Assembly (NCBI GenBank): GCA_951406725.2
Contig: OX597835.1
Span: 32,178,001-32,242,000, forward strand
Origin: Octopus vulgaris
Taxonomy: Eukaryota
DNA length: 64,000 bases
Direction: 5' to 3'
Under the pieces are notes generated by a model. It worked only from the letters and a program-made list of their open reading frames with translations, was not told the origin of the DNA and did no database searches. How positions within the stretch are numbered: the stretch's first letter is position 1; the number at the start of each line of letters is the position of its first letter. Positions 30,835-57,189 of this stretch are shown here, piece after piece. The translations under genes and the position numbers were made by a program.

Positions 30835-30889
<55 letters not shown>

Positions 30890-31359: not shown

Positions 31360-31617
31360 GGTAAATACACACACTCTATTACACAAGGTGCATGAGAGAA
31401 CATGTTGGAGATCACAATGATGAACGTGAATCCTTCCGTGACAGTGGTTGTGGCCGATTGGGTCAAACGCTGCGAACCAGGCATGACCACACTGGGCACG
31501 AAAAGAGACTCTTCCTTCCCCTTCTTAGGGAAAGGGTTCACATCGTCCTTATATTTATCAGCGCATTTCAACACAGCGTATGCAACACTGTTGTTCTCGA
31601 ATTCTTTAGCACTAGCA

Positions 31618-32031: not shown

Positions 32032-32097
32032 TACCAATCAGATTCCCTCACAGCTCCCTATCTGATTCCAGGACGATATTGCTCTTTTACGTGTATG

Positions 32098-32550
32098 TTT
32101 AAGATTGTCTTTGAAAGTCTTGTGCGGCCCGCACTGGGAACGTCTTCCTTTCTCCAGCTTACCTGACCACACCTGCTTTGTCATACGGATATCTTATAAG
32201 CAGACAAGATGATCAAACCATTTAAATTGGCGTTTCATAATCATGGACTCAATACTCGTCATTTTTGCTAATTTCAGTTCTGTCGTATCAGGCAAAAGAG
32301 ATCGTCACGAGCTCTTTGGGATATTACGCAAGCATCACTGGTAGAATCCCACGGGATGTTGGATAAGCCTGCAGTAACGTGTACAGCCTTCTCATCCATA
32401 CAATAGTGCAGCAAAGACACATGCTTGACAAACTTCAACTTCCGTCGCTGCTTTGATATCTGATTGCGACAAGAACCTAGATTCAACATTCCAAACGCAT
32501 CACACGGCTTAGAAAATCTATAACTGCCCTCCTTGTCGAGTGTATTGATT
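32098..32550 (-). mobile_element. RTE-clade LINE ORF C-terminal fragment (degenerate)
   Basis: Reads TLDKEGSYRFSKPCDAFG..., then after frameshifts MTSIESMIMKRQFKWFDHLVCL*DIRMTKQVWSGKLEKGRRSQCGPHKTFKDNLK, a typical RTE tail (W.GH..R...G.R..G...K.fKD). Confidence 0.8.
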
Positions 32551-32650
32551 TTATATACATACATAAAAATTACACGCATTTCAAATATTATTCATTCGAG
32601 ATATCTGGATTAACATTTGCCCCAAATCACAAACGCATATAGAAGACATA

Positions 32651-32950
32651 CATCATCATCATCATCATCATTGTTTGACCGTGGTCGAGACAATGGAATT
32701 TACTATGTTACGCCAGACTTCACGGTCCATCATAGCATTAGGGAGGTCCTGTTGCTGGATGCCTGTATCCCTGGAGATTACATCAGGGTAGGAGATTGTG
32801 CGCCCTCTGGTATCGCGAGCAGATGGCTTCCAGAGGAGAAGAATAGAAATTACCTCGTTTTCAGCTCTACAACAATGTCCAGCAAACTGGACTCTTCTAC
32901 CTTTCACAAGAGATGATACAGGTGGTAATTTCCCATATATTTGTACTTTT
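32651..32950 (-). mobile_element. 5'-truncated RTE-like LINE 3' end with (TGA)n tail
   Basis: Open frame YGKLPPVSSLVKGRRVQFAGHCCRAENEVISILLLWKP...MMDREVWRNIV ending directly in (tga)n. Confidence 0.82.
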
Positions 32951-33878
32951 GGTTGTATACATACATATACACATGTATATATATACAAACTGTAATGAGC
33001 TATACAAACTTGTGTTTTATCATGGCTCGTTCACCCACGAGGTATGTTTATCCACGCGCACACAGAAACTCAGAACAAGTTCGTATATATGCATACATCA
33101 ACCAGTTCAGTTAACCACAAGAACTGTCGTGATATAAATTTTTTAAAAAAGCCTTGCAAATATTCTTCGTAATCGGCTTGAAGTCTGCAAAGGAAAAAAC
33201 ACTTCGAAATTAACATACACGCATACATACATACACGCATACATACATACACGCATACATACATACAAACATAGTTATGTACATACATATATAATTACAT
33301 ACAGGACTACATACATACATACATATATACATACATACATACATGCATACATACATATATTCATACATACATACATGCATACATACATGCATACATACAT
33401 ACATACATACATACATACATACATACATACATACATACATACATACATACATACATACATACACACACAAACACATGGCGTTTTTGTAATTGGAGATTCT
33501 ACACAAATTGTATTCAGAATAACGATTCAAAAGTTTATTATCGGAATGGTTGAATGATCGAATGAAGGAAAGAATGAATATTCGAATAAAAGATTGTCAG
33601 AATTGTAAATATATATGGTTTTATCAATAGATGTTTTATCCAGTTATTTACATTGCATTACATAAACGTTAGCGTCTCTCAATAGATGCTAATTGTTTCT
33701 TTAACCCTGCCTACAGAAAAATCAAGCAACAATAACAGTTACAACGTCACCATTAGCCACGAGAAGTGTAAGTAGTCGCTCGATCATCTAGAAATAGCAG
33801 GCAAACTTTCCTTAAATATACTTTGAAAAGGGAGATGGATATATTCGACAGCGGATTCTAACTAGTTGAAATCTCCAA

Positions 33879-34345
33879 GCGGTTTAAATGCACAAGTCTC
33901 AGATATCCAAGTGGCTTTAAGTGTGTCACGAAAGATCTAGCTGGAGTCCCAAACTTCTGTGTTCTTTTGCAGGGCTTAGAAAAACTGAAGGACCGCTGCA
34001 ATAAGTGTGTGAATCTGAGAGGGGAAAATTTAATTCTTTATTGCCCACAAGGGGCTAAACATAGAGGGGACAAACAAAAATAGACAAAGGGACTAAGTCA
34101 ATTACATCGACCTCAGTGCGTAACTGGTACTTATTTAATCGACCCCGAAAGGATGAAAAGCAAAGTCGAGCTCGTCGGAATTTGAACTCAGAACGTAACG
34201 GCAGACGAAATACGGATACACATTTCGCCCGGCGTGCTAACGTTTCTGCCAGCGCGCCGCCTTGTGAGAGGGGAATATATTACATAAAATCATATTTAAC
34301 TGATCCTTCTGTATTTTCTCAGCCAAAGCCAGGAACTTTTCACCT
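33879..34345 (+). mobile_element. Mariner-derived relic interrupted by a SINE A copy (34032-34262, minus)
   Basis: LLQGLEKLKDRCNKCVNLRGEY matches the mariner C-terminal G...L..RW.KC....GEY motif. tgagaggggaa is duplicated on each side of the SINE. Confidence 0.75.
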
Positions 34346-34541
34346 TTCCCACCAGTTGTAGCTGATGAAGCAAAATACCATTTCTTGGTTTAAGCCGCTT
34401 GTGAATCAGTTCCTTGTTTTCACACTGAATAATTGCACTCTTGATTAATAACTACATTGAATGAGTCACTGTGATAGCGTTGATGCTTCAGCGCTACCAT
34501 GATAACCAATGTTATTTCATCTTTGAACAGATGTTTTAAAA

Positions 34542-34875
34542 GGCGGCGAGCTGGCAGAATCGTTAGCACGCCGGGCGAAATGCTTATCGACATTTCGTCT
34601 GCTGCTACGTTCTAAATTCAAATTACGCCGAGGTCGACTTTGCCTTTCATCCTTTCGGGGTCGATAAATTAAGTACCAGTTACGCACTGGGGTCGATATA
34701 ATCGACTTAATCCGTTTGTCTGTCCTTGTTTGTCCTCTCTGTGTTTAGCCCTTTGTGGGTAGTAAAGAAATAGGTATTTCATCTGTTTTACGATCAAAGT
34801 TCAAATTCCGTCGAGGTCGACTTTGCCTTCTTTCCCCAACATTTCAGACGTTGTTCCTAGAGTAGAAAAGAGTAT
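34542..34875 (+). mobile_element. SINE family A dimer
   Basis: Full head and unit, junction aaagaaataggtatttc, then a shortened second unit with the type-2 tail. Confidence 0.88.
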
Positions 34876-34928
34876 AGGTTTGGAAGCTGAGTCAATGGAA
34901 AGGAGTCACAACTTGATGAAATTTCTGA

Positions 34929-35130
34929 ACGGTTTAAATGCACAAGTCTCAGATACCAAAGTAGCATTAAGGGTATCGTGAAAGACCTGGTTGGGAGCCC
35001 AACCTTCTGAGTTATTTTACAGGGCTTAGAAAAATCGAAGGACTACTGCAATAAGTGTGTGAATTTTAAAAGGGAATATGTCTGAATAAAATTATAAATA
35101 ACTGATCCTCCTGGATTTTCATTTATCCCC
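34929..35130 (+). mobile_element. Second copy of the mariner-derived relic
   Basis: Similar to 33879-34345, from cggtttaaatgcacaagtctcagata to actgatcct. Confidence 0.72.
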
Positions 35131-35280
35131 AAATGGCTGAAAAGAGCCAGCAGAATGTCACCCAAGAAAAAAGTGTAAAAAGTTCAGGGCCAAAACATTT
35201 GCATGAGGTGAGACTTCTTCTCTGAAGACACTCTGCTGTTTATTCGAAATAAACATACAGTCGTACGAGTGGCTATGTGG

Positions 35281-35460
35281 AGGCGTAGGAGTGGCTGAGT
35301 GGTAAGTAGCTTACGACCCACATGGTTCCGGGTTCAGTCCCACTGCGTGGAACCTTGGGCAAGTGTCTTTTACTATAGCCTCGCACCGACCAAAGCATCG
35401 GTTGTCAAGCGATGTTGGGGATACAAACACAGACACACAAACATATACACACACATAAAT

Positions 35461-35549
<89 letters not shown>

Positions 35550-35781
35550 TTATGTGTGTGTATATGTTTGTGTGTCTGTGTTTGTACCCCCAACATCGCT
35601 TGACAACCGATGCTGGTGTGGTTACATCCCCGTAACTTAGCGCTTCTGCAAAAAAGACCAATAGAATAAGTACTCGTCTTACAAAGAATAAGTCCTGGGG
35701 TCGATTTGCTCGACTAAAGGCGGTGCTCCAGCATGCCCACAGTCAAGTGACTGAAATAAGTAATAGAGTAAAGAGTAAGAG
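35281..35781 (+). mobile_element. SINE family B with internal inverted duplication
   Basis: Arms ~35395-35463 and ~35545-35613 flank a (CA)/(TA) spacer. Confidence 0.88.
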
Positions 35782-36105
35782 TATACACGCTTACATACAT
35801 AGTTATATACATCGTACGTTTGAACATACATGCGAACACACACGGACACACGTACACCGACACGCGCGCATATACATACATACTCCCGAGAGTTTCTTAA
35901 CATCATACTATTACAAAACATGCGATGACCGTGGTTTAGAAGTTTCGCCCTACCAGATTTCGTTGACTTTGATAAAGTTTGGTTATTGTTGGTGCAGGAG
36001 AGAATGGTCCCAAGAGCACGTATTTCTTGAGCAAGTTTCAAACTTTACAGCATTGGCTGTGTCTGTGTAATCAAATGATTGCAATTACTGAAACACCAAC
36101 ATCTG

Positions 36106-36629
36106 TGGAGGCGCAATGGCCCAGTGGTTAGGGCAGCGATCTCGCGGTCGTAAGAACACGGTTTCCATTCCCAGACCGGGCATTGTGAGTGTTTATTGAG
36201 CAAAAACACCTAAGCCCCACGAAGCTCCGGCGGGAGGGGTGGCGAACTCCGCTGTACTCTTTCACCACAACTTTCTCTCACTCTTTCTTCCTACTTCTGC
36301 CACAAAGCAGAGGAACCATGGTGTTACCCACTATGGTGCGGTAAACTTTCAGAACCTAGTCTAGATTGCGAATCATCTGTACCCCAGGATGGTTCAGCTC
36401 TCCACCCGTTAAAAGCCACCGTTTACGGAATGAGGATAGCAACGTAGCTTTCGCGCCCGTGCAACCGCCAGTCTATCGCGTGTGGTGGGTGGATTTTCAA
36501 GTTGCCATATACATTCTTAGTAGCTTAGAGTAGGCTCGAATTAGAGATTATTCTTTGGTGGCTAATGGCGTGAGTCCTGATTGGAAGAAGAAGAAGAAGA
36601 AGAAGAAGAAGAAGAAGAAGAAGAAGAAA
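36106..36629 (+). mobile_element. SINE family C, second full copy
   Basis: Collinear with 23492-24031, with a (GAA)n tail. Confidence 0.88.
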
Positions 36630-36750
36630 CAAAAAGATATACAGCGCTAACACAGTATTATCAATATTCACCCAATCACCACCTTATCGATTTTCCCAAT
36701 AACATAAAGACGTCGTCGTCGTCACCATCATCACCACCACCACCACAACC

Positions 36751-36847
<97 letters not shown>

Positions 36848-37372
36848 CCACCACCACCATCATCATCACCATCATCATCAGCATCATCATCATCATCATC
36901 ATCAAAAACACCACCATCATCATCATCATCATCATCATTATCGTCATCATCATCATCTTCACCGACGATAACATTAACAACAAAGACAAGATCAACGTCG
37001 GCATGGGCGTCAGTAATTATGTCTAATAACAGGTAGTGTTTAATCTTCAACATTAATAACATGAACGAGACATTGAGAGCGACAGAGACAATGGCGGGTT
37101 TTAATGACGAAAACTCTAGTGACAAGAGAAAAAAAGAGTCAAATATTCAAACGGAAAGAGTGCGTGCGCGCGCATAGAGAGAGAGTGGGGAGGGAGGCAC
37201 ATTATACACATACACAAATTCAAACACTCGCAAACATCACACACATATACATAGACATACATGTACAGGATCTTTCAATTTATCTAATTATCTAATCATC
37301 TATCTATATATCTATCTATTTATCTCTCTCTTTCTCGCTATCTCTCTCTCTGTGTCTGTCTGTGTCTCTCTC

Positions 37373-37414
<42 letters not shown>

Positions 37415-38341
37415 CTCGTGTGTGTATGCACGTAGGTAGGTTGATATGTAGCGAGGTAGGCCTGTGTGAGTATATATACACACATATATATATATGTGTG
37501 GGTGGGTGTGCGCGCGTACGTGTGAGTGTATGTTTTATGTATATATATATGTGTGTATGTGTGTGTATGTGTGTGGTGAAACAGAGATAGATACATAGAT
37601 AGATTGAGAGAATGAGAGAGAGAGAGAAAGAAACAGGCAGACATACGGACAGATTGACAAGCAGACAGGAAAGCAGGTAGGGGCAGAGGGCCTATGGAAA
37701 TTAATTATCGAATAAATTTCAGAATTCCCAAAAACTACATATCAAAACAATAGAATTTTTATATGATTGTATGCATTACAAAATAAAAATTAAAATCACA
37801 AGAACAAAAAATGAAAAGACAAATAATGAAAATTTTTACTAATTTCAGATATTCACAAGTAATCGATTTCTTTTTAGCCAAAGATTGGAGAAAAAAAGAA
37901 ATAAAAATTCGTTTCACATAAAGGATTCATTATTTTAATGTTGAGTTGTAAAATATTTGTAAGTGGCAGTCATCTCATAGCTTAAAAGTTTGTTCGTTTT
38001 ATCCCCAAATGATGTTAGTTTGACAGGTGTGTACATATATATATATATATAAGCATATATGAATGTTTCTAATTATATATTGATGTACATGCCTTCATAT
38101 ATATAAGAATGTATGTATTTATACATACGTACACATGTATATATATATGTGTATATATATACATAAAAATACATATATATATATACAAATACATATATAA
38201 ATGTATATAAATAAGGATAAGTTCGTTATTTAAATATCGAACTTATCAAGTGGCCAGCATGGGAATAAAAACCTTCAAAGGTAATAATCATTATATAATA
38301 CCTATCTATCTATCTATCTATGTATCTATCTATCTATACAT

Positions 38342-38403
<62 letters not shown>

Positions 38404-38724
38404 ATATGTATATGTATGTATATATATATATATGAACGCGTAAACATATATTTATATACTTATAGGTACCTATATATATATATGAAGGCGCATGTGCGCT
38501 GTGTGTGTTGTGTGTGTTTGTGTGTGTGTGTGTGTGTATGTGTGTGTGTGTGCATGTGTACATGTGTATATGACTGCCTAAATAAGGAAAAACACACTCA
38601 AAGCATATAGTAAAGTTTAAATATGCAAGTATATGTTGTGTCATCTTGACTCGTAAATTTAAGTTTTGCTTTATTGATTATTGAAATAATTATCGGCGCG
38701 AATATGTTCCAGAAACGTCCCCTC

Positions 38725-39685
<961 letters not shown>

Positions 39686-40309
39686 TAGCACGTGAAAAAC
39701 TGCTGAAAACTTGTCGGTACCTAAGGTTACCCGCTATAGTGGTAAGCTGTTATCCACATAATTCCTACCAAACCGGGCCTGAGACAAACTAAAATAATAA
39801 TAATAATTATGATGATGATGATGATGATCGTTATTTGCCACAAAGTCGAAGGACGAGATGGACAATACAGAGACAGACATAAAGTGTGTGGGTTCACATA
39901 TAATAATAAAATGATGTAAAAATAAACTATACACTGTGATGATGATGATGATGATGATAATAATAATAGTAACAATGATATTAATAATAGTAGCATTTTG
40001 CAATGTAAAACAGCATAACTCATGCAACATGTACTATATTATACTAGGGACTAATAAAATAACACATCTCACATACAACAGAATGCACAGTAATATAACA
40101 AGACCCGAGAATTCAAACACTACAACAAAACAAACTGGATCAGTACGCCAGCATGAGGCGCTTTCCCTCCACCAACCTCAATATGTCCATAATATCGGAC
40201 ATACTTCAGAGACATGGAGATGCAAAAATTGGTGCTTCAGATTCTCGCATGAATTGATCAAAGAAAAAAAGTTTCATAATAATAATAATAATAATAATGA
40301 TAATAATAA

Positions 40310-40890
40310 TGATTTTAAACTTTGCTCAAGGCCAACAATTTCGGGGGAAGGGGAAAAGTCGATTACAGCGGCACCAGTGTTCAACTGGTTCTTATTTTGT
40401 CGATCCTGAAAGGATGAAAGGCAAAGTCGACCTCGGTGGCATTTGAACTCAGAACGTAAGGATGGATGAAATGCCAATTTCTTTACTAACCACAAGGGGC
40501 TAAACACAGAGAGGACGAACAAGGACAGACAAACGGATTAAGTCGATTATATCGACCCCAGTGCGTAACTGGTACTTATTTAATCGAACCCGAAAGGATG
40601 AAAGGCAAAGTCGACCTTGGTGGAATTTGAACTCAGAACGTAGCGGCAGACGAAATACCTATTTCCTTACTGCCCATAAGGAGCTAACCACAGAGGGGAC
40701 AAACAAGGACAGACAAACAGATTAAGTCGATTATGTCGACCTCAGTGCGTAACTGGTACTTATTTAATCGACCCCGAAAGGATGAAAGGCAAAGTCGACC
40801 TCGGCGGAATTTGAACTCAGAACATAGCGGCAGACGAAATACTGCTAAGCATTTCGCCCGGCGTGTTAACGATTCTGCCAGTTCAACGCT
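40310..40890 (-). mobile_element. SINE family A trimer, followed by further degenerate copies to ~41400
   Basis: Three cores, with junctions at ~40470 and ~40655. Confidence 0.88.
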
Positions 40891-41915
40891 TGAATAACAA
40901 TAATCATAATAATCTTTTCTACTAGAGGCACAAAGCCTTGAAATTTTGCGGGAGGGGACTAATCGATTACATTCACACAAGCGTTTCCCTGGTCTTTAAT
41001 TTATCAACACCGAAAGACCTTCGCAGAATTTGAGCTCAGAACACAAAGACAGACAAACTGTCTCTAAGCATTTTGCCCGACTCGTCAGCTCCTGACATTC
41101 ACTTCATTTAGCAATAATCCTTTCTTCTAAAAGCACAAGGCCTGAAATTTGCAGGGAACAAACTAGTCGATTACGTGTTTCTTTCACTGGTACTTAATTT
41201 ATCGCCCCCGAAAGAATGAAAGAGAAAATCAACCTCGGCGGAATTTGAACTCAGATCGTAGCGACGGGCGGAATAGCGCAAAGCAGTATTTCACTTATTA
41301 TTTACTTCAAGAGAAAAGGAATTTAAAATATTCAAAGTCGACCTCGGCAGGTTTTAAACAACACAAAACGAAAAGAGGGTCATAACTAAATATAGCAAAC
41401 GGCGGTGCCCCAGCATGGCCGCAGCTTTGAGCTGAAACTGATAAAATAACAATCATTTTGTCTGACACACTCTATAATTCAACACATTTGCCAGTCATTG
41501 AGCGCAGATTAAATGCTTTTATTTTACACTATTTTATTTTCTTTAAGATATTTTATTTCCTGTATAATTCACGCATTTGAATATGTTATCTATCTTAAAA
41601 TTTCACTCATGTTCATTTCCTAAATATGCACACCACCATCTTCTTTCGTTAAATCGACTATCATTCTTATTGTTTTTATAATTATCATTATTACTATTGA
41701 TGCTTTCGTAGACGCTCAAATTTCATTTTATATTGAACAATCTATTTATTCTACTGTATGTTGTTCTTTTGTATTCTATTTTATTTTTCGAAACCCGAAT
41801 TTTGTTCTTCATTTATTTTTATGTTGTTCATCTTTCGTAATCATATAACTTCGCTCTTTTTAATTATTCTCTGTACTCACTTTTCTCTCTCGACACACGA
41901 GTATAATATATGTAT

Positions 41916-41948
<33 letters not shown>

Positions 41949-41949
41949 C

Positions 41950-42011
<62 letters not shown>

Positions 42012-42642
42012 ATATAATTTGTTTAATTTACATTTGACAAGTTTTGTGACAAGTCGGTGTTTACTGAAGAAGCGTATGATTAATGGTGAGTAGTTGTGTG
42101 AAATCAATACAATAATCACTAGAGGAACCTGAAGATAATGAATTCTGGACAGTTTTTTAAAGTATTAATTACATGTAGTAAACACTGACACGCCGACAAA
42201 CAAACAAGCAATTTGGACAACGTTCCAGGTGATCGAATATTTAAATGTCAAAGGTAACGTAAAGAAGGAAAGAAAAAATATCGAAAACAGAAAACACTCG
42301 AAAAACAACACCCTGAACGTATAAACATATATGTATGCGTCTGTATGCATATATGTGAGTGTGTATGTGTTTGTGTGTGTGTGTGTGTGTGTGTGCGTGT
42401 GTTTGTCTACATGTATTTTTATGCATGTATATGTATATAAATATATGTATATAGTATATACCAAAGTGTGTTTAGATGTACGTACCCATATATGTATGTA
42501 GGTGTAAATAAATAAAATTCATATAACTTTATGCGAAAATAAATTGTCACACTTCCCTCTGTGTATATATATATATATATATATAATTGATTTGAAAGCG
42601 CGCGTGTGTATGTGAACGCGCGTGTATAATGTTTATATGAGA

Positions 42643-42677
<35 letters not shown>

Positions 42678-43766
42678 GCAAACGCATACACACAAATACA
42701 TACCCACAGGATTTCTTATATATATATATATATATATATAAAGACTCAGACCTGTAATTTCTTTAAATGTGATTCAAGAAATGGTAATTGCTAAACAAAG
42801 AAAAAAATACATTAACAAAGATTTTATTATGCCTATATCTTTACTCAATTAAATATGTAACGTATTTAGTTATGTATACATTCGCCGAAATGCTCTCCAC
42901 CTCTGTCTCTCTCTCTCTTTCTGTCTGTCTGTCTGTCTGTATTAATGTATGTTCTCTTTTTTTAATTTGCTATAAATTTTGACCGGCCACCTCCTTGGAA
43001 GCAAGGATGCGAAGGAAAGCATCTTGTTTTAAGCACCATCCTTTAAATCTTAAGCTGGCGGGGTCCTGTAGATTCTTATAGCCCCTGATACCGTGATCAT
43101 ATCTATGGCTACATAACATGCATGTATGTCATTGTTCAGTTTCATTTACAAGATTTCTTGCCAATAGAGAAAGAGCCGGTTTCTAACCTAGATCCAAGGC
43201 TTATTTATTGCACATATGCATACCCTAACCAATTTTGTGAGCCACATAACCCTACACCTGTCTGCACTCAAACGAAGAGCCTTGCCAATTGATTGGTTTT
43301 CCGTTTGAGTTCTGTAAAGATAATTTTAAAATTTTAAAGAAAAACACGGATACATACGTACATACAAACATACATGCAAGCATACATACATACATACATA
43401 GATGCATGCATGCATGCATACATACATTCATACACGCGCGCACACAAACACATAGACTATATACATATATATATACACGGACACGCACATACACTTCTGC
43501 TTATCAACTTAACTTTTACTAATATTTAATAAAATATTTTAAAGGATTCAAATTGTTATGCAATGATCGTGGCTGTCCCCGCTGCCTGCCATCCCAACAA
43601 TCAATATATGTACCAATCAACAGGTGTTTTAATCGATACCTCTATTAACTTCAATGTATCGATTCCAGTTGCAATTTCTTTGAACCGATAATGTTTACCT
43701 GTTTTATGACGATTATAATTATTCCGATATATTCGCATACTGCTTCCCTTTCTTCTTTATAGTTTA

Positions 43767-44160
43767 CTAGCACTATGACCCGGCAACGCTGGGTATATGC
43801 ATGCTAGTGCATGCATTTACGGCTGCGTGCGTGCGCACATACACGCGAGTACTGTCCAAATATCCACCAACCACATACAGCTAGCTGGCATTCAATTGGC
43901 GTATCAAGTTTCGGGCATTTTGATTGGGATTTGGATAGAAAATTCACAAAAACGTCACTTCTATTGATTTGTTATCACTTTGCTGGGTGACTGGGGAAAT
44001 GTACAGATGTGCACGACCACCCTTGGACAGTTCTGAATAACCATAGAAAATGAGAGCTCTCTAACTGAAAAATTGTGGATTTGTATAAAGGATACACACA
44101 CACACACACACACACGCACACACACACACACACACAGACATTTTGCGGTTTATATAGAGA
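43767..44160 (-). mobile_element. Non-autonomous Helitron-like element
   Basis: The minus strand starts TCTCTATATAAA followed by a (TG)n tract. It ends with the hairpin cccagcgttgccggg, 8 nt, then CTAG|T, which are canonical Helitron termini. Confidence 0.72.
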
Positions 44161-45042
44161 GAAATTTAGAGAGAGAGAGATAGAAAACACGACACGGTAT
44201 TTATTACAGTGATGCTCAGTCAAATAAGAGCGGTGCCAGTTTAAAACTGGGTCATAGACAAAGGCTACCAACCAGGAACATAACCCACTCACGGGATACA
44301 TTTCTCTACAGATAACGGCAGCCAAGTTTCACATGCAGGAGTTGTTGATATTGTTTATCCCTACTTTAAGTCTAAACTATCCAAAGCATTATCCTCATTT
44401 TTTCTTAAGTTTATCCAAAGTCTCTGTATTTGTTTTCAAACTTTTAGTTAGCCATTTTTTTAAAACGCTCTGACGAATACAAAGTTTCTTTTTCATAAGT
44501 TCCTGTTTAGTCTAATGGTTGAAAAACATTTGCGAACGTGCATTGTAAATGATGCATGGACGCCAGGGGGATATGTCCTGTGTTTCACATGTGATACAGA
44601 GGGCGAAAAAAAAAGGATAAAGACCAAACTCATTCACAAATCTCGTTGTATATACGTCAGGATGCTGCTTCGCTTCGTTCCAGCACATTATACTCAAAAA
44701 CAGAAAGTTTACTGTACAAGAAAGACACTTTCCGACGATGACATGTAGTGCGATCGAACGTGGAAACATGCAATTGCAAAGTGAAATAATTTACCACGAA
44801 GCTATAATTGTTTTTATATTAAGTCTAGTGAATCAAACCAAAATTCAATTATATATATATAGCACGTCCTTGCGTTGTTGTGTTTTCTCTTGGTGTTTTC
44901 ATCTTTGGATTAACTCTATATATAAATATATATACATTGGCCTGCTCGCTTAGCCAGCGGGGTGGCGTCATTTCAAGGCTAAAACAATGCGAAGCGCATT
45001 GTGACCAGCAATGTGTAGCAATGTGTCGGTCACGGTGAACGG

Positions 45043-45101
<59 letters not shown>

Positions 45102-45951
45102 CATACACACATACATTCACACACACACATATATATATGTGTGTATTTATTATTATGATTATTATTATTATTATTGTTGTTGTTGTTGTTGTTATTATTC
45201 TTCTTCTTATTATTATTATTACATATACACGGTGGAATTTGAGGAATGATTGGCTGGTATTCAAGTAGATCCAGCTATCACGTAGAGTTCCATTGATAGG
45301 CAAGAAACAAGTTGCTCATACCAGCGAATCTTATGCATGTCTGCGAGCTGACGATTAGCAGGGGTCACTTTTCAAATAGTAAACAAAAAGAGGCAGTTTA
45401 ACAAAAAGAAAAGTAAATAAATAAATTACGGAAATGTACTTGTATAGCAAGTGACCTGATCTAAGATCGTGTGCTGGAACGAAAACAATTGCAGCGTGGA
45501 AGGTATTTATAGGCCATTTAAGAAACACAGAAAACCCGTTAGATTCACTTTAACATTTAAATTTAATTTGCCAAAGTATTTTTGTCGCTTTGAGACTGCG
45601 ACCTGTTCACTCACAAAAAAAAAAGGAAATGAAAAGATAGTTTCGTACAAATAAAGAGTTTGACTTTTACCAACAATTACTATATAAATAACCATTTATA
45701 TTTTAGGATAAATCTGATTATTTTGCTTTTTAATTGAAGAAGTTGGTGGCTTATTGCATGATATGCATATTAATAACCTGGTTTTATTTCAAATCCATGC
45801 ATGTTCGGTTATCATATCAGTTATAGGAGGAACTGATCGGTGCGAAAATATATATGGTGAATTATGTGATATTATGTTAATCCTATACACACAGACACAT
45901 ATATGAGTGTGTGTGTGTGTTTATCTATATATATATGAATAGATATATATC

Positions 45952-45983
<32 letters not shown>

Positions 45984-46058
45984 CATATATACATATATAT
46001 ATATTTATATATACGGACATATACATATATAAAATATATATCTATATACATATACCTG

Positions 46059-46099
<41 letters not shown>

Positions 46100-46154
46100 T
46101 TTTCTTTTATATATATATAAATATATTTATGTATATATACATATACCTATATAT

Positions 46155-46430
46155 AGGCGCGGGAGTGGCTGTGTGGTAAGTAGTTTGCTAACCAACCACA
46201 TGGTTCCGGGTTCAGTCCCACTGCGTGGCATCTTGGGCAAGTGTCTTCTGCTATAGCCCCGGGCCGACCAATGCCTTGTGAGTTGATTTGGTAGACGGAA
46301 ACTGAAAGAAGCCCGTCGTATATATGTATGTATATATATGTGTGTGTGTGTATGTGTTTGTGTGTCTGTGTCTGTCCCCCTAGCATTGCTTGACAACGGA
46401 TGGTGATGTGTTTACGTCCCCGTTACTTAG
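46155..46430 (+). mobile_element. SINE family B, 3'-truncated
   Basis: Head and middle section intact. Confidence 0.88.
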
Positions 46431-46689
46431 GGCACGCGCGCGCGCGCGCGTGTGTGTCTGTGTGTATGTGTGAGTGTTTTCAAAAAATACACTCCATTTT
46501 TGAAGCTCCGATGAAGCTATATGGTGATACACATGCACTCAGCTACGACTGCATTGCTTCTTATAGAAGAAACATTTGTAAGCCAATGGAGTTCATGAAA
46601 TAACTTCTTACTTCCTTCTCATTTCTTATTTTTATCTATTTCCATCTCTTCACCCCACCTCTCTCTCTCTCTTTCTCTCTCGCTCTCTT

Positions 46690-46738
<49 letters not shown>

Positions 46739-46743
46739 TATTC

Positions 46744-46786
<43 letters not shown>

Positions 46787-47094
46787 GTATGTATGTATGT
46801 ATGTATGTTTGTATATATATATATTTAATTCTATTTGTTAGGGAATAAAAATACCGGCATAACAGGGGTTCAAACTATTCTCAATGAAGACATATATATT
46901 TTCATTTAGAGATAATAGGCCAAGTTATAAAGTTATAAAGTTATAAAGTTGTAAGTATTTAAATTAAATTTCTTTTATATGTTGAGATGAATGGGCCTAC
47001 TATCTATAAATGAATATATATATATATATACAGATAGATAGATAGATAGATATACATATGTATACATATATATATACACACATGTATACATATA

Positions 47095-47188
<94 letters not shown>

Positions 47189-47204
47189 TAAATAATACAT
47201 ATAC

Positions 47205-47235
<31 letters not shown>

Positions 47236-47845
47236 TGCCACAGACACGTGCACCGACATCTGAAAGCTAGATGAATCCCGGCAGGTAACTCAGTCATCAC
47301 TTCTTATCTCCTTCGTTATACCCTACCAAATATCCTACAGTTTTATTCCTATAAATCAGAGACGAACCATGGGAATGCTTGGAATTGTGAATATCGCGAG
47401 AATAAGTTTTTACCAAGTTAAGACAATAATTTATCGTTCTAGTTGTTTCTGCTGCATCCTGGTGGTGTTTATTTTTTTTTTCTAAAGTAAATTCCTCTGC
47501 GTTTCCGAGACGTGTCTTGAATGTTCCATCACCAATAAATTTCTTTCTGGGATACAATCAACACTACTGACATACTTCCACCATATATATATAAGGGAAT
47601 AAATTAAATTCTGCATTTTTTAAATCTCCTTTTAATCTTTCTTCTTTCTTTGTTTTATTGATGGGACGGCAGCAATACTTGAGTAGCATTTTGAAAGGGC
47701 TTTAGTCAATCAAATCGAGCCCTTCCTCTACTTACAGGGACGCAAACGAATCAACATCGGTTCCCAAGTCAAGAGGCGAGAGAAATACAGACATAAATAC
47801 GCACGCGCGCACACGTATATACATATCAGAGATGATGTATACACA

Positions 47846-47904
<59 letters not shown>

Positions 47905-48892
47905 ATATATGTATATATGTATGTATGTCTGTATGTATGTTCCACAAAAGTTTTGCCAATTAAATTCACTCACAAGGTTTTGGTCGACCTGAGGCTATAG
48001 TAGAAGACACTTGCCCAAGATGTCATGGAGTGAGTCTGAACTCGAAACCACGTGGACTGCAATGCGAGGTCCCTAACCACGCAGCCATGCCAGTCCCTAT
48101 AAAACTTTTCTAAGTTGATCGCAGTAAACTAAACCGTTGCTGAATTTGTTTGTGTCCATGAAGAAAATGCATCAGGGCATTTATTAGTATTATTATTTTT
48201 ATTGAGTGAGAAAGCAGTGCATGCCACCAAAGTGACATATCAAGATAAACATCGCAGGGATGTAAACAAACCGACAACAGTTGTCAAGTGGGACAGGTGT
48301 GGAGTGTACAAAGACAAAGGCAAAGACACTGGTGCACATGTATACGATGGGCTTCAACACAGTTTCCTTCTAACAAATCTCTCTCAAGGCAATGGTCGGC
48401 CAAGGTACCGCACAGTGCGACTGAAATTGAAATATACTCAACATTCACGAATGAACATAATATATGAATGCATAAACATAATATATGAATGCATTAACAT
48501 AATATAGGAATGCATAAACACAGTGCGTCTCTGTGCGTGCATAGAAAGAGAGTGATAGACGCACAAACGATTCTATAAATGTAAAGATGGATGCATTCAT
48601 TTAGACGTCAGACGAAACATACTGCACGACAGATGCGTAGCGACATAAATATGGAGGTTTGTGTATAGGAATATATTAACTCGTTTGGCAAGTATGGAAG
48701 ACAGTAAATTTCGTTTTATTACTTCATGTGTACGCTCTGTACATACATATAGCAAGCAGGTGATGACGGATGTAGTGATGACATACATACATAACATAGG
48801 TACACATGCACCGAGATGCAGACATACATGTACACATACATACATACCTACATACATACACACCTTTGGAGATTCTTTAAATGAATATACAT

Positions 48893-49225
48893 AGGCGCAG
48901 GAGTGGCTGTGTGGTAAGTAGCTTGCTTACCAACTACATGGGACCGGGTTCAATCCCGCTGCATGGCACCTTGGGCAAGTGTCTTCTACTATAGCCTTGG
49001 GCCGACCAAAACCTTGTGAGTGGATTTGGTAGACGTAAACTGAAAGAAGCCCGTCGTATATATGTATATATGCATGTGTGTATATGCTTGTGTGTCTGTG
49101 TTTGTCCCCCCAACATCGCTTGACAACGGATGCTGGTGTGTTTAAGTCCTGGGGTCGATTTGCTCGACTAAAGGCGGTTCTCCAGCATGGCCGCAGTCAA
49201 AATGACTGAAACAAGTAAAAGAGAG
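48893..49225 (+). mobile_element. SINE family B with internal deletion
   Basis: Head and tail intact. Confidence 0.88.
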
Positions 49226-49312
49226 ATATGCAAACATTTTGTTGTGTGCATTGACACAAATCTAACAACTAATGATACACAACATCACACACACACAAAC
49301 ACACACACACAT

Positions 49313-49343
<31 letters not shown>

Positions 49344-49920
49344 CACAATCACACACATTGACATACACATGCACAAACACCTAAGTATTACAAAAATCAT
49401 ATTCCCACAGAACGGGAGTGCTGGTACACTCATCTACATACACGCATACACCAACTCATCCATATCATTAAAAGCTGCAAGGAACGGTCTTAATTCAAAA
49501 AGTCTTGTCACTTTAGTAAACACCTTGTATTCCGTAACAAAAATCTTAAACTTCAGAGAAATGCATACACATACAGATACATACATGCATACCTACATAC
49601 GTACGTACATACATACATACATACATACATGCATACATACATACATACATACATGCATACATACATACATACATACATACATACATACATACATACATGC
49701 ATACATACATATATACATACATACATACATACATGCATGCATACATACATACATACATACATACATACATACATACATACATACATACATACATACATAC
49801 ATACATACATACATACATACATACATACATACATACATACATACATACATACATACATACATACATACATACATACATACATACATACATACATACATAC
49901 ATGCATACATACATACATAC

Positions 49921-50233
49921 TGTGTACAGTTATGGAAATTCCAATGCCGAACTATTGAGAATCTGCAGTTACTTTATCCTGATTACAAATTCAGGTTTCT
50001 ACTTCTAATTATTGGGACCCTGGGTTATATAACATACTGTTTAAATACCAATCTTGAGCAATTAGGCTTCTTAAAACAAGAAAGAAAAAAGCTAATTCGA
50101 AGAGTACAGATTTAATCCATCACTGGAACTGTAAAAATCTGTAAAACTTTCCAGAAGTTTATCGTTTAACTATATGTTAGCATGTCTAGATATGCATACA
50201 TACGCAAAACATACATACAAATCTGCACATACA

Positions 50234-50267
<34 letters not shown>

Positions 50268-50390
50268 AAAAATACCCTGTTTGTGATGCTGAAACTCTAG
50301 CGAAGGAGCCTTGGATCTAGGTTAAAAACCAGGTCTTTCTCCACTGGCAAGAAATTTGTAATAAACGGAATAATGACATGTATACATACA
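49921..50390 (+). mobile_element. R4/Dong-like non-LTR element 3' end (restriction-like endonuclease C-terminus) within (CATA)n
   Basis: AELLR/NLQLLYPDYKFRFLLLIIGTLGYITYCLNTNLEQLGF...SITGTVKICKTFQKF matches the RLE tail (Y..L...L.......p.iiG.lG). Its 3' UTR recurs inverted at ~43120-43205. Confidence 0.72.
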
Positions 50391-51104
50391 AACATACATA
50401 ATGCATACATACATAATACATACACACATACATACATACATACATACATACATACATACATACATACATACATACATACATGCATACATACATACATACA
50501 TACACACATACATACATACATACATACATACATACATACATACATACATACATACATACATGCATGTATGTAAGCTGTAAGGTGTTACTCAGGCATTCAA
50601 CTGTGAGTCCACCACATCTTACAGTGGAAACAGCTGTAAGCTGATGAAGTTTATAAGCTAATCGTTCATTGCTTTGTCAACTCTTTCTTATTACCCCCTC
50701 TGTACCCAACTAACGCTTCGTTCCCAAAGACACGTATATTGAGTTCTCTACGAGGTAAGTAGTATTACAATTCATAAACGAAATATTAAAATGCATACAT
50801 ACATACAGACATGTAGACAGACAGACAGATAAGCAGACATGCACGCATACATACAAAAACACAGGCATGCAAAACACACAAGCACCTACATACTAAAGAG
50901 ACGGTCACCCAGATCGTAAGTACAGGAACATATGTGTACATATATGCATAGCCCAACTCAACCGCATTTTTACAAACCCCAGGAACTGCCTTAAATCAAA
51001 GGGTCTTGTCACTTCGTTAGCAGTCGAATTGAATTCTATGAAAGAAAACTTTGACCTCAATGAGAAACATACACATATACATGCATCGATGCTACATCTA
51101 TTTC

Positions 51105-51301
51105 TGTCTCTTTTACTTGTTTCAGTCATTTGATTGCGGCTATGTTGGAGCACCACCTTTAGTCGAGCAAATCGACCCTAGGACAAGCCTAGTACTTATT
51201 CTATCGGTCTATTTTGCCGAATCGCTAAGTTACGTGGACGTAAACACACCACCATCCGTTGTCAAGCGATGTTGGGAGGACAAACACAGACACAAACATA
51301 T

Positions 51302-51334
<33 letters not shown>

Positions 51335-51501
51335 CATATATACGACGGGTTTCTTTCAGTTTCCATCTACCAAATCCACTCACAAGGCTTTGGTCGGCCC
51401 GAGGCTATAATAGAAGACATTTACCCAAGGTGCCACGCAGTGGGACTGAACCCGGAACCATGTGGTTGGTAAACAAGCTACTTACCACACAGCCACTCCT
51501 G
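51105..51501 (-). mobile_element. SINE family B
   Basis: Near full-length reverse copy. Confidence 0.88.
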
Positions 51502-52532
51502 AATTATTTGCTAAAGTTAGCATTCCAATGCTAGCCATGGTATACATTCAAAGCAGGATTGAAACAAAATAGGAGTTGAGATACTTGTTTTAGTATCGTT
51601 TATTTTCTTTACTATCCACACTTATTTCTGTGAGATAAGCAGGATTACAATCTCATACCTCGATACCGTTCGGACGACCAAGCGTAAAAAAGAACAGTTT
51701 TGGAACTAGTAAACTAGTAACACTTCTCTTGAGTCGGGTAAGTAGTGTAAATTGTTGATTTATTGTCTGTCACATATCAGGATGAGGAGTCTTTTCTTGA
51801 TACTCAAAGAAAAATGTAGGTATGCGTTGGCATGTGATGGAGATAAAGGCAGTTGTTTCGGAGTTCGAGAGACGGAGTTCGAGAGACGGAGTTCTCATGG
51901 AGATGTTCTCTGCTGCAATGTCTGTTCTTTCTCCAATACTGTCCCTGAAACACTGGCGATCTCTCCTTTGTCTATTGAATACTAAATCTGTTTTGAAAGA
52001 GTTCTGGTGTTTCCTTGGTAAGGATAACGAAATTAACTGCTATGTATATTATAAAGGAAGGAGTCCTCTGTAAGCCGTATCGAATTTTCATGTGGCTACT
52101 GGATGCCGGAGCATGGTATATAGTGGATTTATCTAAGTATTTCCTCTTCCTATAACAAGGTTTCCTACTTACGCCTTCACAGGTCGCTTCCCATCTCACT
52201 ATAACGGGCTTCTTTCAGTTTCCGTCAACGAAGTTTTTAGTTTCCATCTACCAAATCTACTCACAAGGCTTTCGTCGACTAGGAGCCTTGTATTAGGACT
52301 GAACATGGAGCCATGAGGTTAATACACCTGTCTTCGACGTTTGTTTTTCTATAATTTTCAGTTATGTATGTATGTAGGAAATCTGCTGTGAATGGTCTGT
52401 CTATCTTGTTTCTGCCCTGTTTGCCGTTTGTTATGTTACCGTTTACGTTATTGTCTATTTTTCCGCATGTTGTGTTTTGTTCGATTCCGCTTGTTATGTT
52501 CTCTTTCTCCTACTTTTGATTTACAGATTTAC

Positions 52533-52567
<35 letters not shown>

Positions 52568-52956
52568 TATTCATTTACGAAGGTGTCATTAATTCTATTA
52601 TTATCCAATGGTGAATTATTTTTCTCGTAAATTATATCGAGATTATTTTACACTGATGGCTGCTGTGATTTCGGCGCGAAACGAATCAGTTCAAAGCGAA
52701 CGAATCTGTTCAAAGCGATGGGTTGGGAATCTCTAATCATGGTAACGCGTGGTGAAGAAGCTAAGGCTTATTTTGCCAGTGCAGAATCCGGTCCACGTGA
52801 GCCCAGATACTTAAATGTATGTTAGTAGATTGTCTTAACCTAATTTTGACTTCGTTTGATTTCTGTAGTTTTCATCAGTGTATTTTTGGCGATTTAATAA
52901 GAGTTTTGACTGTTATTTCAAGCAGGTAGACATACTTAGTATGTCCTTTGATTAAT

Positions 52957-52990
<34 letters not shown>

Positions 52991-53629
52991 TACGCGCACA
53001 CAAAACAGGTGATCAATGTATGGGATAAGGAAGGAATATACGTAATAGTGGGGGAAAATACATTTTCAGATTCTTATATATAAATCGTTGCAAACAGTAA
53101 ATATAAAAGTTTTAACAAATTTTCTATAGTTTCTTCTCGTTACTTTCTGGACTATATAAACTGACTTAAAAGTGTTGGCTTCATGTAGATTTTAACGAAG
53201 GTAACATGAAATCATGTTCGACGTACTTATTACTGGGTAATTTCAGGACTGTGAGATGGATGGAAGTCAGCGTTGCAAGCTAATGAAACACTCGTTCAAG
53301 ATACAGTGCTCTCGTTGCTTACAGCAATAAACTGCACCCACACACTGGGCCCTAATTACAGCTAGGGTAACGACATACGGGGTAACGCCGAGATAAACTC
53401 ATCAGAAATTGAACTGCCATACATAAATAGATTTGCCTTCAATTTCATTGTATTGTGTTAGAAAGCGATTGACATAACAGAAGTACCATTTAGAGATATC
53501 TGAAGATATAGTACAAGATTGGTTCCTTAGTTAGCATTCTTTGAATGGAGATTCTACTCGGTCAGAGCTGATTTCGCTCTATACATTAACATCTTCAAAA
53601 AAGCACTATATATATATATATATATATAT

Positions 53630-53830
53630 AGGGCGAGTTTACGAAAAAAAAAAAAAAGACGAAGACAGGTGATGTACAAAACAAACAGATGTATTAGTAT
53701 AACGCTCAGAAATAGAGAAAAGTCTTTCACGTTTCGAGCCTACGCTCTTCTACAGAAAGGGACACAGAAAAAACAAGGAGAGAAAGGAGAGAAAAAATGT
53801 GTGTGTAGTGGCTATCGATCTATCATGGGG
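53630..53830 (-). mobile_element. Penelope-type terminal repeat with degenerate hammerhead (53724-53759)
   Basis: cttt-CTGTAGA-agagcgtaggctc-GAAAC-GTG-aaag. Both the core and the cleavage triplet are non-canonical. Confidence 0.55.
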
Positions 53831-53922
<92 letters not shown>

Positions 53923-54241
53923 GTATGTATGTATGTATCTATGTATGTATGTGTGAATGCATGTATGTATGTATGTATGTATGTATGTATGTATGTATGT
54001 ATGTATGTATGTATGTATATATGCATGTATGTATACGTAAATGTTGAACAAGGAGAATGAGCACTCAACACCGCATTTGTGGATAAAGTTTCTTTATGTG
54101 TGTATGTCTATTAGGGTTACCATTGGTTTCATGTGAAAGAAGATATCTTAATATCTTAATAATTTCTCAAGCTCATCACATAGAGGAATGAGGTTTGTCT
54201 CCATAAATACATACACACACACAAATATTTGTATATATATA

Positions 54242-54279
<38 letters not shown>

Positions 54280-54348
54280 TATACATATATATTATATATA
54301 TATATGTATGTGTATATATATATGAATTTATATATATATATATGTGTG

Positions 54349-54380
<32 letters not shown>

Positions 54381-55329
54381 TATAAATATATATATGTATA
54401 TATATATATATGTATATATGTATGTATATATATATGTATATATATACTGCATAAATAGAAGTTTTAATCCATATACTATCTCTTTTAATCTCTATATCAG
54501 TGTTTCTTAAGTTCTTTTGTTTTGTTTTTTATTTTTACCATACCAAAACCTCACACTTCATGTGTTAGGAGATAACAGATATGTATTCAAAATACGTTAA
54601 TACAGATTATCAATGTTAAGGTTATATACATATATATATATATATATATATAATATTGATATAGTATCAATGTTATATTAATTTAATATCAAAATTCTTA
54701 AAATCATAAATTAAGTCGAAAATAAATCTAGGAAAACGCAATATGAAAATGATGGAGGATATATTTTCTTCCTCAAATATTTCTCTACCAGAATCTTCAA
54801 ATTTCCCACCCACTTCAATCCTAGAATTTCCTCCAAATTAAGAATTACAGGTCATGAGCAAGTACATGAAAGTTGTTCAGAGTCAAGAGCAAAAAAGGAC
54901 ATAAATTTTACGAAATTATATATAGGCAATTAACATTAAATTAGTGTTACTTTATTGTCTCGGGAGGGTCATAAAGCCAATACTAAACACACGTACTGAT
55001 TCTATATCACCTCTTTATGATGTAATTTATTGATCAATTATGAAAGAAGTAAAATAGAATCAGTGCGTATTTAAAATTAGCATAATGACGCTCCAGGGAT
55101 ACAACAAAATTTATCTCAACACACAAGGTCACATCAAAAATCCTGAAAAATAAATGCATTAACAAAAGGAAATTTTGTCCTTAAGGGCTTAAAGCTACAT
55201 ATATTTTAGATTTTATTTTTCACGTGGTCTTTAAGCAAGTTCGTCAAGGAGCGGATCCAAATTTAAACGGGGATAAAGTGTTTCTTGCACATAGTGGGAC
55301 AAAAGAAAAATAACGAGATTAAAATGATG

Positions 55330-55512
55330 CGGCTAGTCGATTACATCGACCCCAGTGCTCAACTGGCACTTGTTTTATCGACTCCCAAAGGACGAAAAGC
55401 AAAGTTGACCACGAGGAGATTTGAGCTAAGAACGTAACAAGACAGAAGAAATGCTGCTAAGCATTTTTTCCGGCATGCCAAAGATTCTGCAGCTTGCCAA
55501 CCTGAGGTTAAG

Positions 55513-55582
<70 letters not shown>

Positions 55583-55787
55583 TGATTTTAATTTTTGGCA
55601 CAAGACCAACGGGGGAGGGGTTAAGTCGATTACATCGACCCCAGTACGCAACTGGTACTTCTTTTTTCGACCCCGAACGGATGAAAGGCAAAGTAAACCG
55701 CGGCGGAATTTGAACTGAGAAGGTGAAGACAGGAAATGTCGCTAAGCATTTTGCCCGGTGTTCTAACGATTCTACCAGCTCACCGCC

Positions 55788-55869
<82 letters not shown>

Positions 55870-56238
55870 TAATAATAATAATAATAATAATAATATTGTT
55901 TTTTTTTTATTTATGTGCCCTTCTCAAGCCTAGCCAGGCTCATGGGCCCAGTTTCCCGGTTTCTAAGGCGGTTCCCCCCAGCTAGACGGGACGCCAGTTC
56001 ATCGCAGCGTTACACAAGAAACAGTGAGAGAAAGTTGGGGCGAAAGAGTACAACAGAGGTCGCCCCCCACCCCCCTGCCGGAGCCACGTGGAGCTTTTAG
56101 GTGTTTTCGCTCAATAAACACACACAACGACCGGTCTGGGAATCGAAACCGCGATCCTCCGACCGCGAGTCCGCTGCTCTAACCACTGGGCCATTGCGCC
56201 TCCACAAAATAATAATAACAATAACAATAATAATAATG

Positions 56239-56286
<48 letters not shown>

Positions 56287-56485
56287 TATATATATATATA
56301 TATTTATATTTCTTTACTACCCACAAGGGGATAAACACAGAGGGGACAAACAAGGCCAGACAAACGGATTAAGTCGAGTATATCGACCCCAGTGCGTAAC
56401 TGGTACTTAATTTATCGACCCCCGAAAGGATGAAAGGCAAAGTTGACCTCGGCGGAATTTGAACTCACAATGTAACGGCAGATAA
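55330..56485 (-). mobile_element. SINE cluster at the start of cephalotocin intron 1: SINE A (55330-55505, 55590-55790, 56305-56485) and a SINE with the family C head (55912-56205), separated by (TAA)n
   Basis: Matches to the families above. The nearest copy begins ~25 nt from the donor. Confidence 0.85.
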
Positions 56486-56503
56486 TACTAATAATAATAC
56501 TGC

Positions 56504-56509
56504 ACTTAC
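56504..56509 (-). other. 5' splice donor of cephalotocin intron 1 (phase 0)
   Basis: Consensus AAG|GTAAGT. Read-through runs into a TAA-repeat/SINE segment and stops. The position (just before the first neurophysin Cys) matches the conserved intron 1 of OT/VP genes. Confidence 0.9.
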
Positions 56510-56665
56510 CTTTTGATTTGATCCCTGCTCTGACATGGGTGTCGCTCGTTTGCCACCAATGGGACAGTTTCGGAAATAGCAACCATCTGTAGTGGCAATG
56601 AAGAGACTGCATACTGTGAACAACACGAACAAAAGTTGGACGATGGCGAAACAATTTTGAGACAT
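56510..56665 (-). CDS. CT: Cephalotocin (oxytocin/vasopressin-family) preprohormone, first coding exon: signal peptide + nonapeptide + GKR + linker
   Basis: Translates MSQNCFAIVQLLFVLFTVCSLFIATTDG-CYFRNCPIG-GKR-ATPMSEQGSNQK (52 codons). It has a hydrophobic signal peptide, a Cys1-Cys6 nonapeptide matching octopus cephalotocin, and a Gly-Lys-Arg amidation/cleavage site. ATG at 56665 is in gaaaATG context. The exon ends AAG|GTAAGT. Confidence 0.96.
56555..56581 (-). other. Mature cephalotocin nonapeptide coding segment (CYFRNCPIG-amide)
   Basis: TGC TAT TTC CGA AAC TGT CCC ATT GGT followed by GGC AAA CGA (G-K-R). Confidence 0.96.
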
Positions 56666-57189
56666 TTTCACAGTTGTTCTGTATAATTTTTTTCAGATAT
56701 AGATATATAATAAATAAAGGTATTTTAAAGATATATGCTGTATACTATGCAAATATATAAATAGGTCTCTTGTTTAATTCTTGTGGTGTGGTTGTACTTA
56801 TAGTTATCTCTTGTAGTATTATCTAGATATTTTTTTTCTTTGCTGGTTTTCTCTTTACCACTTCTTCCGCCTGACTACGGCAGAATATAAAGGCTAACTA
56901 GTCTTGTATGACACTGTTACTGCAGTTTCATTACATGCGCTTGTTTGTCTTTTACTAAACACTTGCTTGTTTGTATATTTTTTTTTAACAGCTGATATTA
57001 TTTATTTGCATGTGTGTAATGTGTATGTGTATGTGTGTGCGTGTGATTTATTACTATTATTTTTTTTTATGCAAAGGGGCCGTAACTGACTAAATAAATG
57101 CTTCGTTAATTAAAGATTTCAGTCTGTGGGCTGGGCAGTTTACACGTAGGTTATAAGTCTGACAAGATAATGTAGTGATCTTGGCAGCA

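Follow-up and report, generated by a model that had tools for sequence, protein, structure and literature searches.

The common octopus produces two nonapeptide hormones of the oxytocin/vasopressin (OT/VP) family, cephalotocin and octopressin, and the locus described here raises the question whether these are encoded by two genes or by one. Octopus is treated as the standard invertebrate case in which two OT/VP peptides arose by duplication, similar to vertebrates (PMC7181382, PMC10172372). The stretch analysed, in the following called the window, comprises 64,000 nucleotides of Octopus vulgaris (assembly GCA_951406725.2, contig OX597835.1, here C22; C22:32178001-32242000) and carries an isolated exon encoding the cephalotocin peptide. 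A reading of this sequence alone had proposed that cephalotocin and octopressin come from one locus, in which separately promoted peptide exons are spliced to common neurophysin exons. For the analysis 200 kb beside the window were added, giving 264 kb in total (C22:31978001-32242000). We found one gene with two first exons, one middle exon and two last exons, in which the window exon is spliced past the octopressin exon. Cephalotocin and octopressin are thus very probably products of a single 198.8-kb gene with two first exons, likely under promoters of their own, one neurophysin exon and two last exons.

Exon structure of the locus

The minus strand of the window encodes, from 56665 to 56510, a 28-residue leader, the nonapeptide, GKR and a 12-residue linker (MSQNCFAIVQLLFVLFTVCSLFIATTDG-CYFRNCPIG-GKR-ATPMSEQGSNQK), and this translation agrees without any difference with residues 1-52 of the cephalotocin precursor on record (Q76DN0/BAC82436.1). 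The leader (28 codons, 56582..56665) is hydrophobic and is a predicted signal peptide, judged by its sequence and the architecture of the family. It is followed by the nonapeptide (56555..56581), with the sequence tabulated in PMC7181382, and by the GKR amidation/cleavage signal with the linker (56510..56554). Directly 3' of the linker lies a phase-0 GTAAGT splice donor (56509-56504, minus strand), which is in use in RNA, as RNA-type contigs stop here. In the window, the minus strand contains AG|GTAAGT only once and GTAAGT 15 times. Upstream of the start codon the 5' untranslated part of the exon extends at least over 56666..56917, as given by a contiguous RNA-type contig of run X10, and positions 1..56503 form the first 56.5 kb of the intron towards exon 2.

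The pattern C-x4-C-P-I-G-G-K-R has two matches in the 2.8-Gb genome and none in a backwards control, so that the nonapeptide match is not due to chance. The genome holds two nonapeptide exons, and the relaxed pattern C-[FY]-x3-C-P-x-G-G-K-R likewise gave two matches and none in the backwards control. The relaxed pattern thus added no third nonapeptide exon among the peptides that it covers.

The second nonapeptide exon is coding exon 1 of octopressin (C22:32130810-32130944), 103.6 kb downstream of cephalotocin exon 1, which contains a signal peptide, CFWTSCPIG, GKR, a 10-residue linker and again a phase-0 GTAAGT. Further downstream lie the neurophysin exon 2 (C22:32072700-32072901; 202 bases, 12 cysteines, phase 0 in and phase 1 out), shared by both hormones, and the last exons 3a (C22:32059375-32059478) and 3b (C22:32035836-32035936). 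All five exons are located on the minus strand in the order cephalotocin exon 1, octopressin exon 1, 2, 3a, 3b, and span 198,830 bases. The introns to exon 2 measure 161,608 bases from the cephalotocin exon and 57,908 bases from the octopressin exon, and those from exon 2 to 3a and 3b measure 13,221 and 36,763 bases, respectively. All junctions are GT-AG with matching phases. Exons 3a and 3b both have an AG acceptor in phase 1, and each carries a stop codon and AATAAA within about 100 bases.

Exon 2 gave one match each with the Pfam profile, the protein search and the DNA search of the whole genome, and this sole neurophysin match is located 105 kb past coordinate 1 of the window. Exons 3a and 3b were also found in one copy each genome-wide. 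Within the 264 kb no second or decayed exon 2 was detected, and a six-frame motif scan of the window, which is free of N, revealed no neurophysin exon. A tblastn trace for exon 2 inside the window (C22:32234050-091, E ~0.9) is too weak and too short for an exon. An assembly break was considered and rejected, as no N occurs across C22:31978001-32242000. An intron-free copy of either hormone gene was not found in the assembly. Separately, a weak match (E 0.47) was noted on contig C10.

The layout agrees with what the sequence-only reading had predicted: past coordinate 1 the minus strand carries a single neurophysin exon, and both first exons are located upstream of it. The peptide exon and its donor, which it had described correctly, were confirmed by translation, by the deposited precursor and by contig stops at 56510. 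It was also right that the window holds no neurophysin exon, and a second neurophysin set or an N gap, either of which would have spoken against it, was not encountered. Its idea of one locus holds for exon 2, which is shared, but not for the 3' end, which is not one shared set and consists of 3a and 3b. Separate promotion of the two peptide exons is still likely rather than observed.

Protein records and precursor isoforms

All four exon combinations are open and are matched by protein records. Cephalotocin exon 1 with exons 2 and 3b gives cephalotocin BAC82436.1 (0/152 mismatches), while octopressin exon 1 gives octopressin BAC82435.1 with 2 and 3b (0/145 mismatches) and CAI9739012.1 with 2 and 3a (0/146 mismatches). 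The combination of the cephalotocin exon with 2 and 3a differs at 2 of 153 residues from isoform X1 of Octopus bimaculoides. The two deposited hormone precursors are identical from CMSCGP onwards (100/100 residues), as the earlier reading had put forward. In O. bimaculoides the RefSeq isoforms X1-X4 (XP_014771381.1, ...389.1, ...397.1, ...402.1) form the same 2 x 2 protein set, and all four lie on one 37.7-Mb record. Their names imply one gene model, but they are labelled conopressin/terepressin and the two hormones are unnamed.

The record 'cephalotocin-del' (BAC82437.1, 86 residues) corresponds to cephalotocin exon 1 joined to exon 3b in a shifted frame (84/86 residues; the three other joins reach 56, 7 and 8). 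Since this variant loses exactly exon 2, it represents exon skipping and links the window donor with the distal end of the locus.

In two models of O. sinensis (XP_029649633.1, XP_029649634.1) both first exons are missing and the protein starts at a methionine inside exon 2. The records for the contig studied here, CAI9739011.1 and CAI9739012.1, are octopressin isoforms only, and the distant cephalotocin exon seems to have been lost by automatic annotation. Protein record P0005 is a precursor with CFWTACPIG and a tail resembling 3a, and the decapod-like predictions P0033 and P0041 apparently extend into introns at the borders that exon 2 has in octopus.

By every structural test the octopus locus is a member of the OT/VP precursor family. 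A signal peptide directly precedes a Cys1-Cys6 nonapeptide with GKR, each isoform has three coding exons separated by a phase-0 and then a phase-1 intron, and the neurophysin domain contains 14 cysteines. PF00184 was detected at 70.7-72 bits (cut-off 27.2) in all three full precursors scanned and not in cephalotocin-del. Exon 3a encodes an NTS sequon and a leucine-rich stretch, which aligns with the leucine-rich part of vertebrate copeptin, whereas 3b and the tails of cuttlefish and chiton have no sequon; any function of the sequon would be speculative.

Splicing in sequencing runs

In all three RNA-type runs, which belong to three studies, exon 2 is covered and nothing of the flanking introns. 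At the exon-2 acceptor two contigs branch off in each of these runs. The mixed 30-letter consensus at this point is explained completely (30/30) by the exon ends of cephalotocin and octopressin together, while alone they explain 17 and 19 letters and the intron explains 8. The cephalotocin string is completed by only one stretch in the 264 kb. At the exon-2 donor a continuation into 3a is present in each of the three runs.

Contigs of the same runs stop exactly at 56510 on the window exon and carry 28 further letters, which were identified for X3. From 56510 they extend to 56917 (X10), 56836 (X3) and 56827 (X11). The X3 contig (385 letters, depth 70.4) places letters 31-357 on window positions 56510-56836 and letters 356-385 on exon 2; both placements were taken as one record because length, depth and abutting positions agree. 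In the DNA-type run X2, one 813-letter contig (depth 12.5) spans exon 2 into both introns without a loose end, and the X2 contig at the window donor reads through unspliced (depth 16.4).

Two first coding exons are therefore spliced onto a common downstream exon, as in any alternative-first-exon gene. Likewise both terminal exons, which each possess an acceptor, a stop codon and a poly(A) signal, are used, 3a in the RNA-type contigs and 3b in the deposited proteins, as is typical for alternative last exons.

Proposed mechanism and other cephalopods

Each first exon is likely to stand under its own promoter, so that the choice of promoter would be the choice of hormone. Either first exon, encoding signal peptide, nonapeptide, GKR and linker, is joined in phase 0 to the single neurophysin exon, and a transcript from the cephalotocin promoter would traverse the octopressin exon and skip it. 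Exon 2 is then joined in phase 1 to either last exon, and the choice of last exon, each with its own poly(A) signal, would determine the final two cysteines of the neurophysin as well as the copeptin-like tail. The output could be up to four precursors of 153, 152, 146 and 145 residues. Expression of cephalotocin is described as narrow and that of octopressin as wide, at differing sites (PMC7181382), which fits two promoters. That the tail choice, with or without NTS sequon, is tied to cell type and alters sorting or release appears doubtful to us.

The order 1-1-2-3-3 is not that expected from a whole-gene tandem duplication, which would read 1-2-3-1-2-3. Probably, exon 1 was duplicated in tandem with its promoter before octopus and cuttlefish separated and exon 3 was duplicated separately, while exon 2 would never have been duplicated. 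Around the start codons (upstream from C22:32234666 and 32130945) the two first exons resemble each other over 57 bases (74%, E 0.001 in a small comparison of AT-rich sequence), possibly a trace of common origin.

In the cuttlefish precursors sepiatocin and pro-sepiatocin the first 45 and 56 residues, respectively, differ, and the remaining 102 of 102 residues, starting at the boundary cysteine of octopus, are identical. The part corresponding to exon 2 matches octopus exon 2 in 46 of 67 residues. First exons group by hormone, with scores of 110 for cephalotocin and pro-sepiatocin, 119 for octopressin and sepiatocin, and 37-60 for the cross pairs. Among the tails, that of cuttlefish scores 46 with 3a and 21.5 with 3b, and that of Argonauta 80 with 3b and 10 with 3a. 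These protein comparisons are consistent with a duplication of exon 1 that predates the separation of octopus and cuttlefish, and with exon 3 having been duplicated in a separate event.

We lean slightly towards the view that in all coleoids one gene yields two hormones by promoter choice, to which octopods add a tail switch (2 x 2), and that this is undescribed in print. For the squid Todarodes the two peptides CFFRNCPPG and CYFRNCPAG are reported (PMC10172372). Both are cephalotocin-like, and together with an octopressin-like exon there could be three first exons in squid.

Alternative explanations

Several points weigh against the interpretation as one gene with two promoters. Six of 24 runs were analysed, all as assembled contigs, whose depth gives no copy number, and their RNA or DNA type is a software guess. 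Run X2 is not independent, being marked as a potential source of the assembly. The genome searches score best candidates only, and the single copy of the exons therefore holds at search sensitivity. The combination of the cephalotocin exon with 2 and 3a was put together from the contig graph and the O. bimaculoides model and not from one single read. Exon 3b was not seen at exon 2 in the three RNA-type runs, so that its use is documented by deposited proteins; because contigs drop rare branches, its absence there is no evidence. The cuttlefish comparison was made with proteins and not with locus DNA. Finally, according to the 2020 review PMC7181382, Kanda et al. 2003 described one protein-coding exon for each of the two hormone genes and their origin by duplication.

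Assembled contigs do not reveal where transcription begins, and the same single gene could also be transcribed from one promoter, with a shared upstream non-coding exon spliced to the cephalotocin or the octopressin exon in a mutually exclusive manner, so that splicing factors would choose the hormone. At the start of the X3 contig 30 letters do not align to the genome upstream of 56836; they may belong to such an exon or reflect a difference in A-run length. An AG is indeed present just upstream of 56836. However, this AG lies within an A-rich run with no pyrimidine tract, where a different run length would also end the alignment, and the X10 contig follows the genome without a joint through 56836 to 56917. 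Moreover, the lengths of the first-exon contigs (346-436 and 789-823 letters) point to long untranslated leaders, as first exons typically have. We consider a single promoter improbable and prefer two.

Another possibility would be two genes with neurophysin exons of their own, kept identical by gene conversion and collapsed in the assembly. The papers describe two genes (PMC7181382, PMC10172372), and in paired vertebrate genes conversion or selection can leave the second exons nearly identical (PMC2656470). Yet both first exons are on record with both last exons, and the O. bimaculoides proteins, on a single record, are named as isoforms. Conversion would have had to remove all differences in exons 2 and 3, both in octopus and in cuttlefish. 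The 264 kb contain no N, and the X2 contig is unbranched on both flanks of exon 2, with a depth there that is not double that at the cephalotocin exon; this contig counts weakly against a collapsed duplicate as well as against an intron-free copy. A collapsed pair is thus very unlikely. Even less probable are two intron-free genes as published in Kanda et al. 2003 according to PMC7181382, with the spliced locus being a relic or the retrocopies being absent from the assembly. The assembly has no such copy, and the DNA-type run X2 shows no exon-exon join at exon 2. The same accession series includes a variant lacking exactly exon 2, and the introns are in the conserved phases 0 and 1 of the family (PMC10532012). 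The O. sinensis models that start inside exon 2 would also not be expected from an intact intron-free gene. In the duplicated-pair model each nonapeptide has neurophysin exons of its own, and here there is one exon 2; in the single-exon model the coding region has no intron, and here it has introns. The octopus locus is neither a duplicated gene pair nor intron-free.

Comparison to known systems

Alternative first exons are a common device, and in variable-first-exon loci such as the protocadherins and UGT1A the downstream part is shared as in octopus. The vertebrate calcitonin/CGRP gene has a shared 5' exon and alternative downstream peptide exons, which give different peptides in different neurons. 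Stewart et al. 2016 are said to have described two conopressin precursor isoforms in Theba pisana, reportedly with the same nonapeptide and a different C-terminal tail. Like the FMRFamide gene of Lymnaea (PMC4208409), in which alternative exons lead to different peptides in different neurons, the octopus locus provides several peptides from one gene. In Lymnaea, however, the 5' exon is shared and downstream peptide exons are swapped, whereas in octopus the peptide exon comes first and the carrier downstream is shared.

With other bilaterian OT/VP-type genes (Aplysia, PMC10067623; echinoderm and chordate, PMC10532012) the locus shares signal peptide, nonapeptide, GKR, a 14-cysteine neurophysin and three coding exons with phases 0 and then 1. 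The vasotocin gene of Aplysia contains one intron of ~40 kb and a middle exon of ~206 bases (PMC10067623). Each of these bilaterian genes has a single first exon and encodes a single nonapeptide, while octopus has exons 1 and 3 twice and exon 2 once. As in the vertebrate oxytocin/vasopressin pair (PMC2656470) there are two nonapeptides with different expression and a small receptor family, in octopus OPR, CTR1 and CTR2 (PMC7181382). In contrast to that pair, two whole genes with their own neurophysins, octopus has one neurophysin exon common to both nonapeptides, so that the systems are parallel in outcome and not in mechanism; the different route suggested by the sequence-only reading is borne out. 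Compared to the single-exon genes of Kanda et al. 2003 (via PMC7181382), the hormones are the same and the precursors match residue for residue, but here five exons are spread over 198.8 kb.

The duplication of the octopus hormone genes is repeated in PMC10172372, two precursors are mentioned in PMC10067623, and the word 'splicing' is absent from the text of PMC7181382. A description of a shared locus or of alternative splicing was not found in the literature searched, which did not include the main original papers (Kanda 2003, Takuwa-Kuroda 2003). Splicing may already have been discussed by those who deposited cephalotocin-del and by the authors of the cuttlefish work, and the structure is already implicit in automatic database models.

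Consequences for hormone evolution and expression studies

The result contradicts the cited account of how octopus acquired two hormones and removes the odd exception of intron-free OT/VP genes. It points to another route, in which only promoter and peptide exon were duplicated and one neurophysin carries both peptides. If true, this would be the first gene of the OT/VP family that doubles the hormone without doubling the carrier, and if it applies to all coleoids, both the 'parallel gene duplication' and the 'intron-free genes' of octopus would be wrong.

The measurement of expression is affected as well. Gene-level counts (bulk and single-cell), neurophysin probes and exon-2 knock-outs all merge both hormones. 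Both 'cephalotocin' primers used for quantitative PCR in PMC5736919 are located in exon 2 (C22:32072759-32072901; 143 bases here and 142 in the paper), therefore they would also amplify octopressin and not tell the hormones apart. In that paper a cephalotocin signal in the gastric ganglion is left unreconciled with earlier work in which octopressin alone was detected in this ganglion. The position of the primers would explain this discrepancy, although two genes with identical neurophysins would have the same consequence. Hormone-specific knock-outs and reporters can be designed from the two first exons.

Other features of the region

A very high-copy repeat, with a summed contig depth in millions, lies at window positions ~56330-56480, about 30 bases into the intron past the cephalotocin donor; we take it to be similar to a short interspersed nuclear element. 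Long ATT arrays follow in the intron (55500-56290), and a long ACC/CAC array is located upstream of the cephalotocin leader (57200-58000). A stop-interrupted Cys/His motif at ~31300-31450 on the minus strand (C22:32209392) presumably resembles the C-terminal finger of a protein of long interspersed nuclear elements (LINE). The long open frames in the introns of the locus have the appearance of repeats or of low-complexity sequence. On the minus strand some 16 kb beyond exon 3b (C22 ~32016700-32020100) there are two open frames, of 564 and 580 codons, which presumably correspond to the endonuclease and the reverse transcriptase of a LINE.
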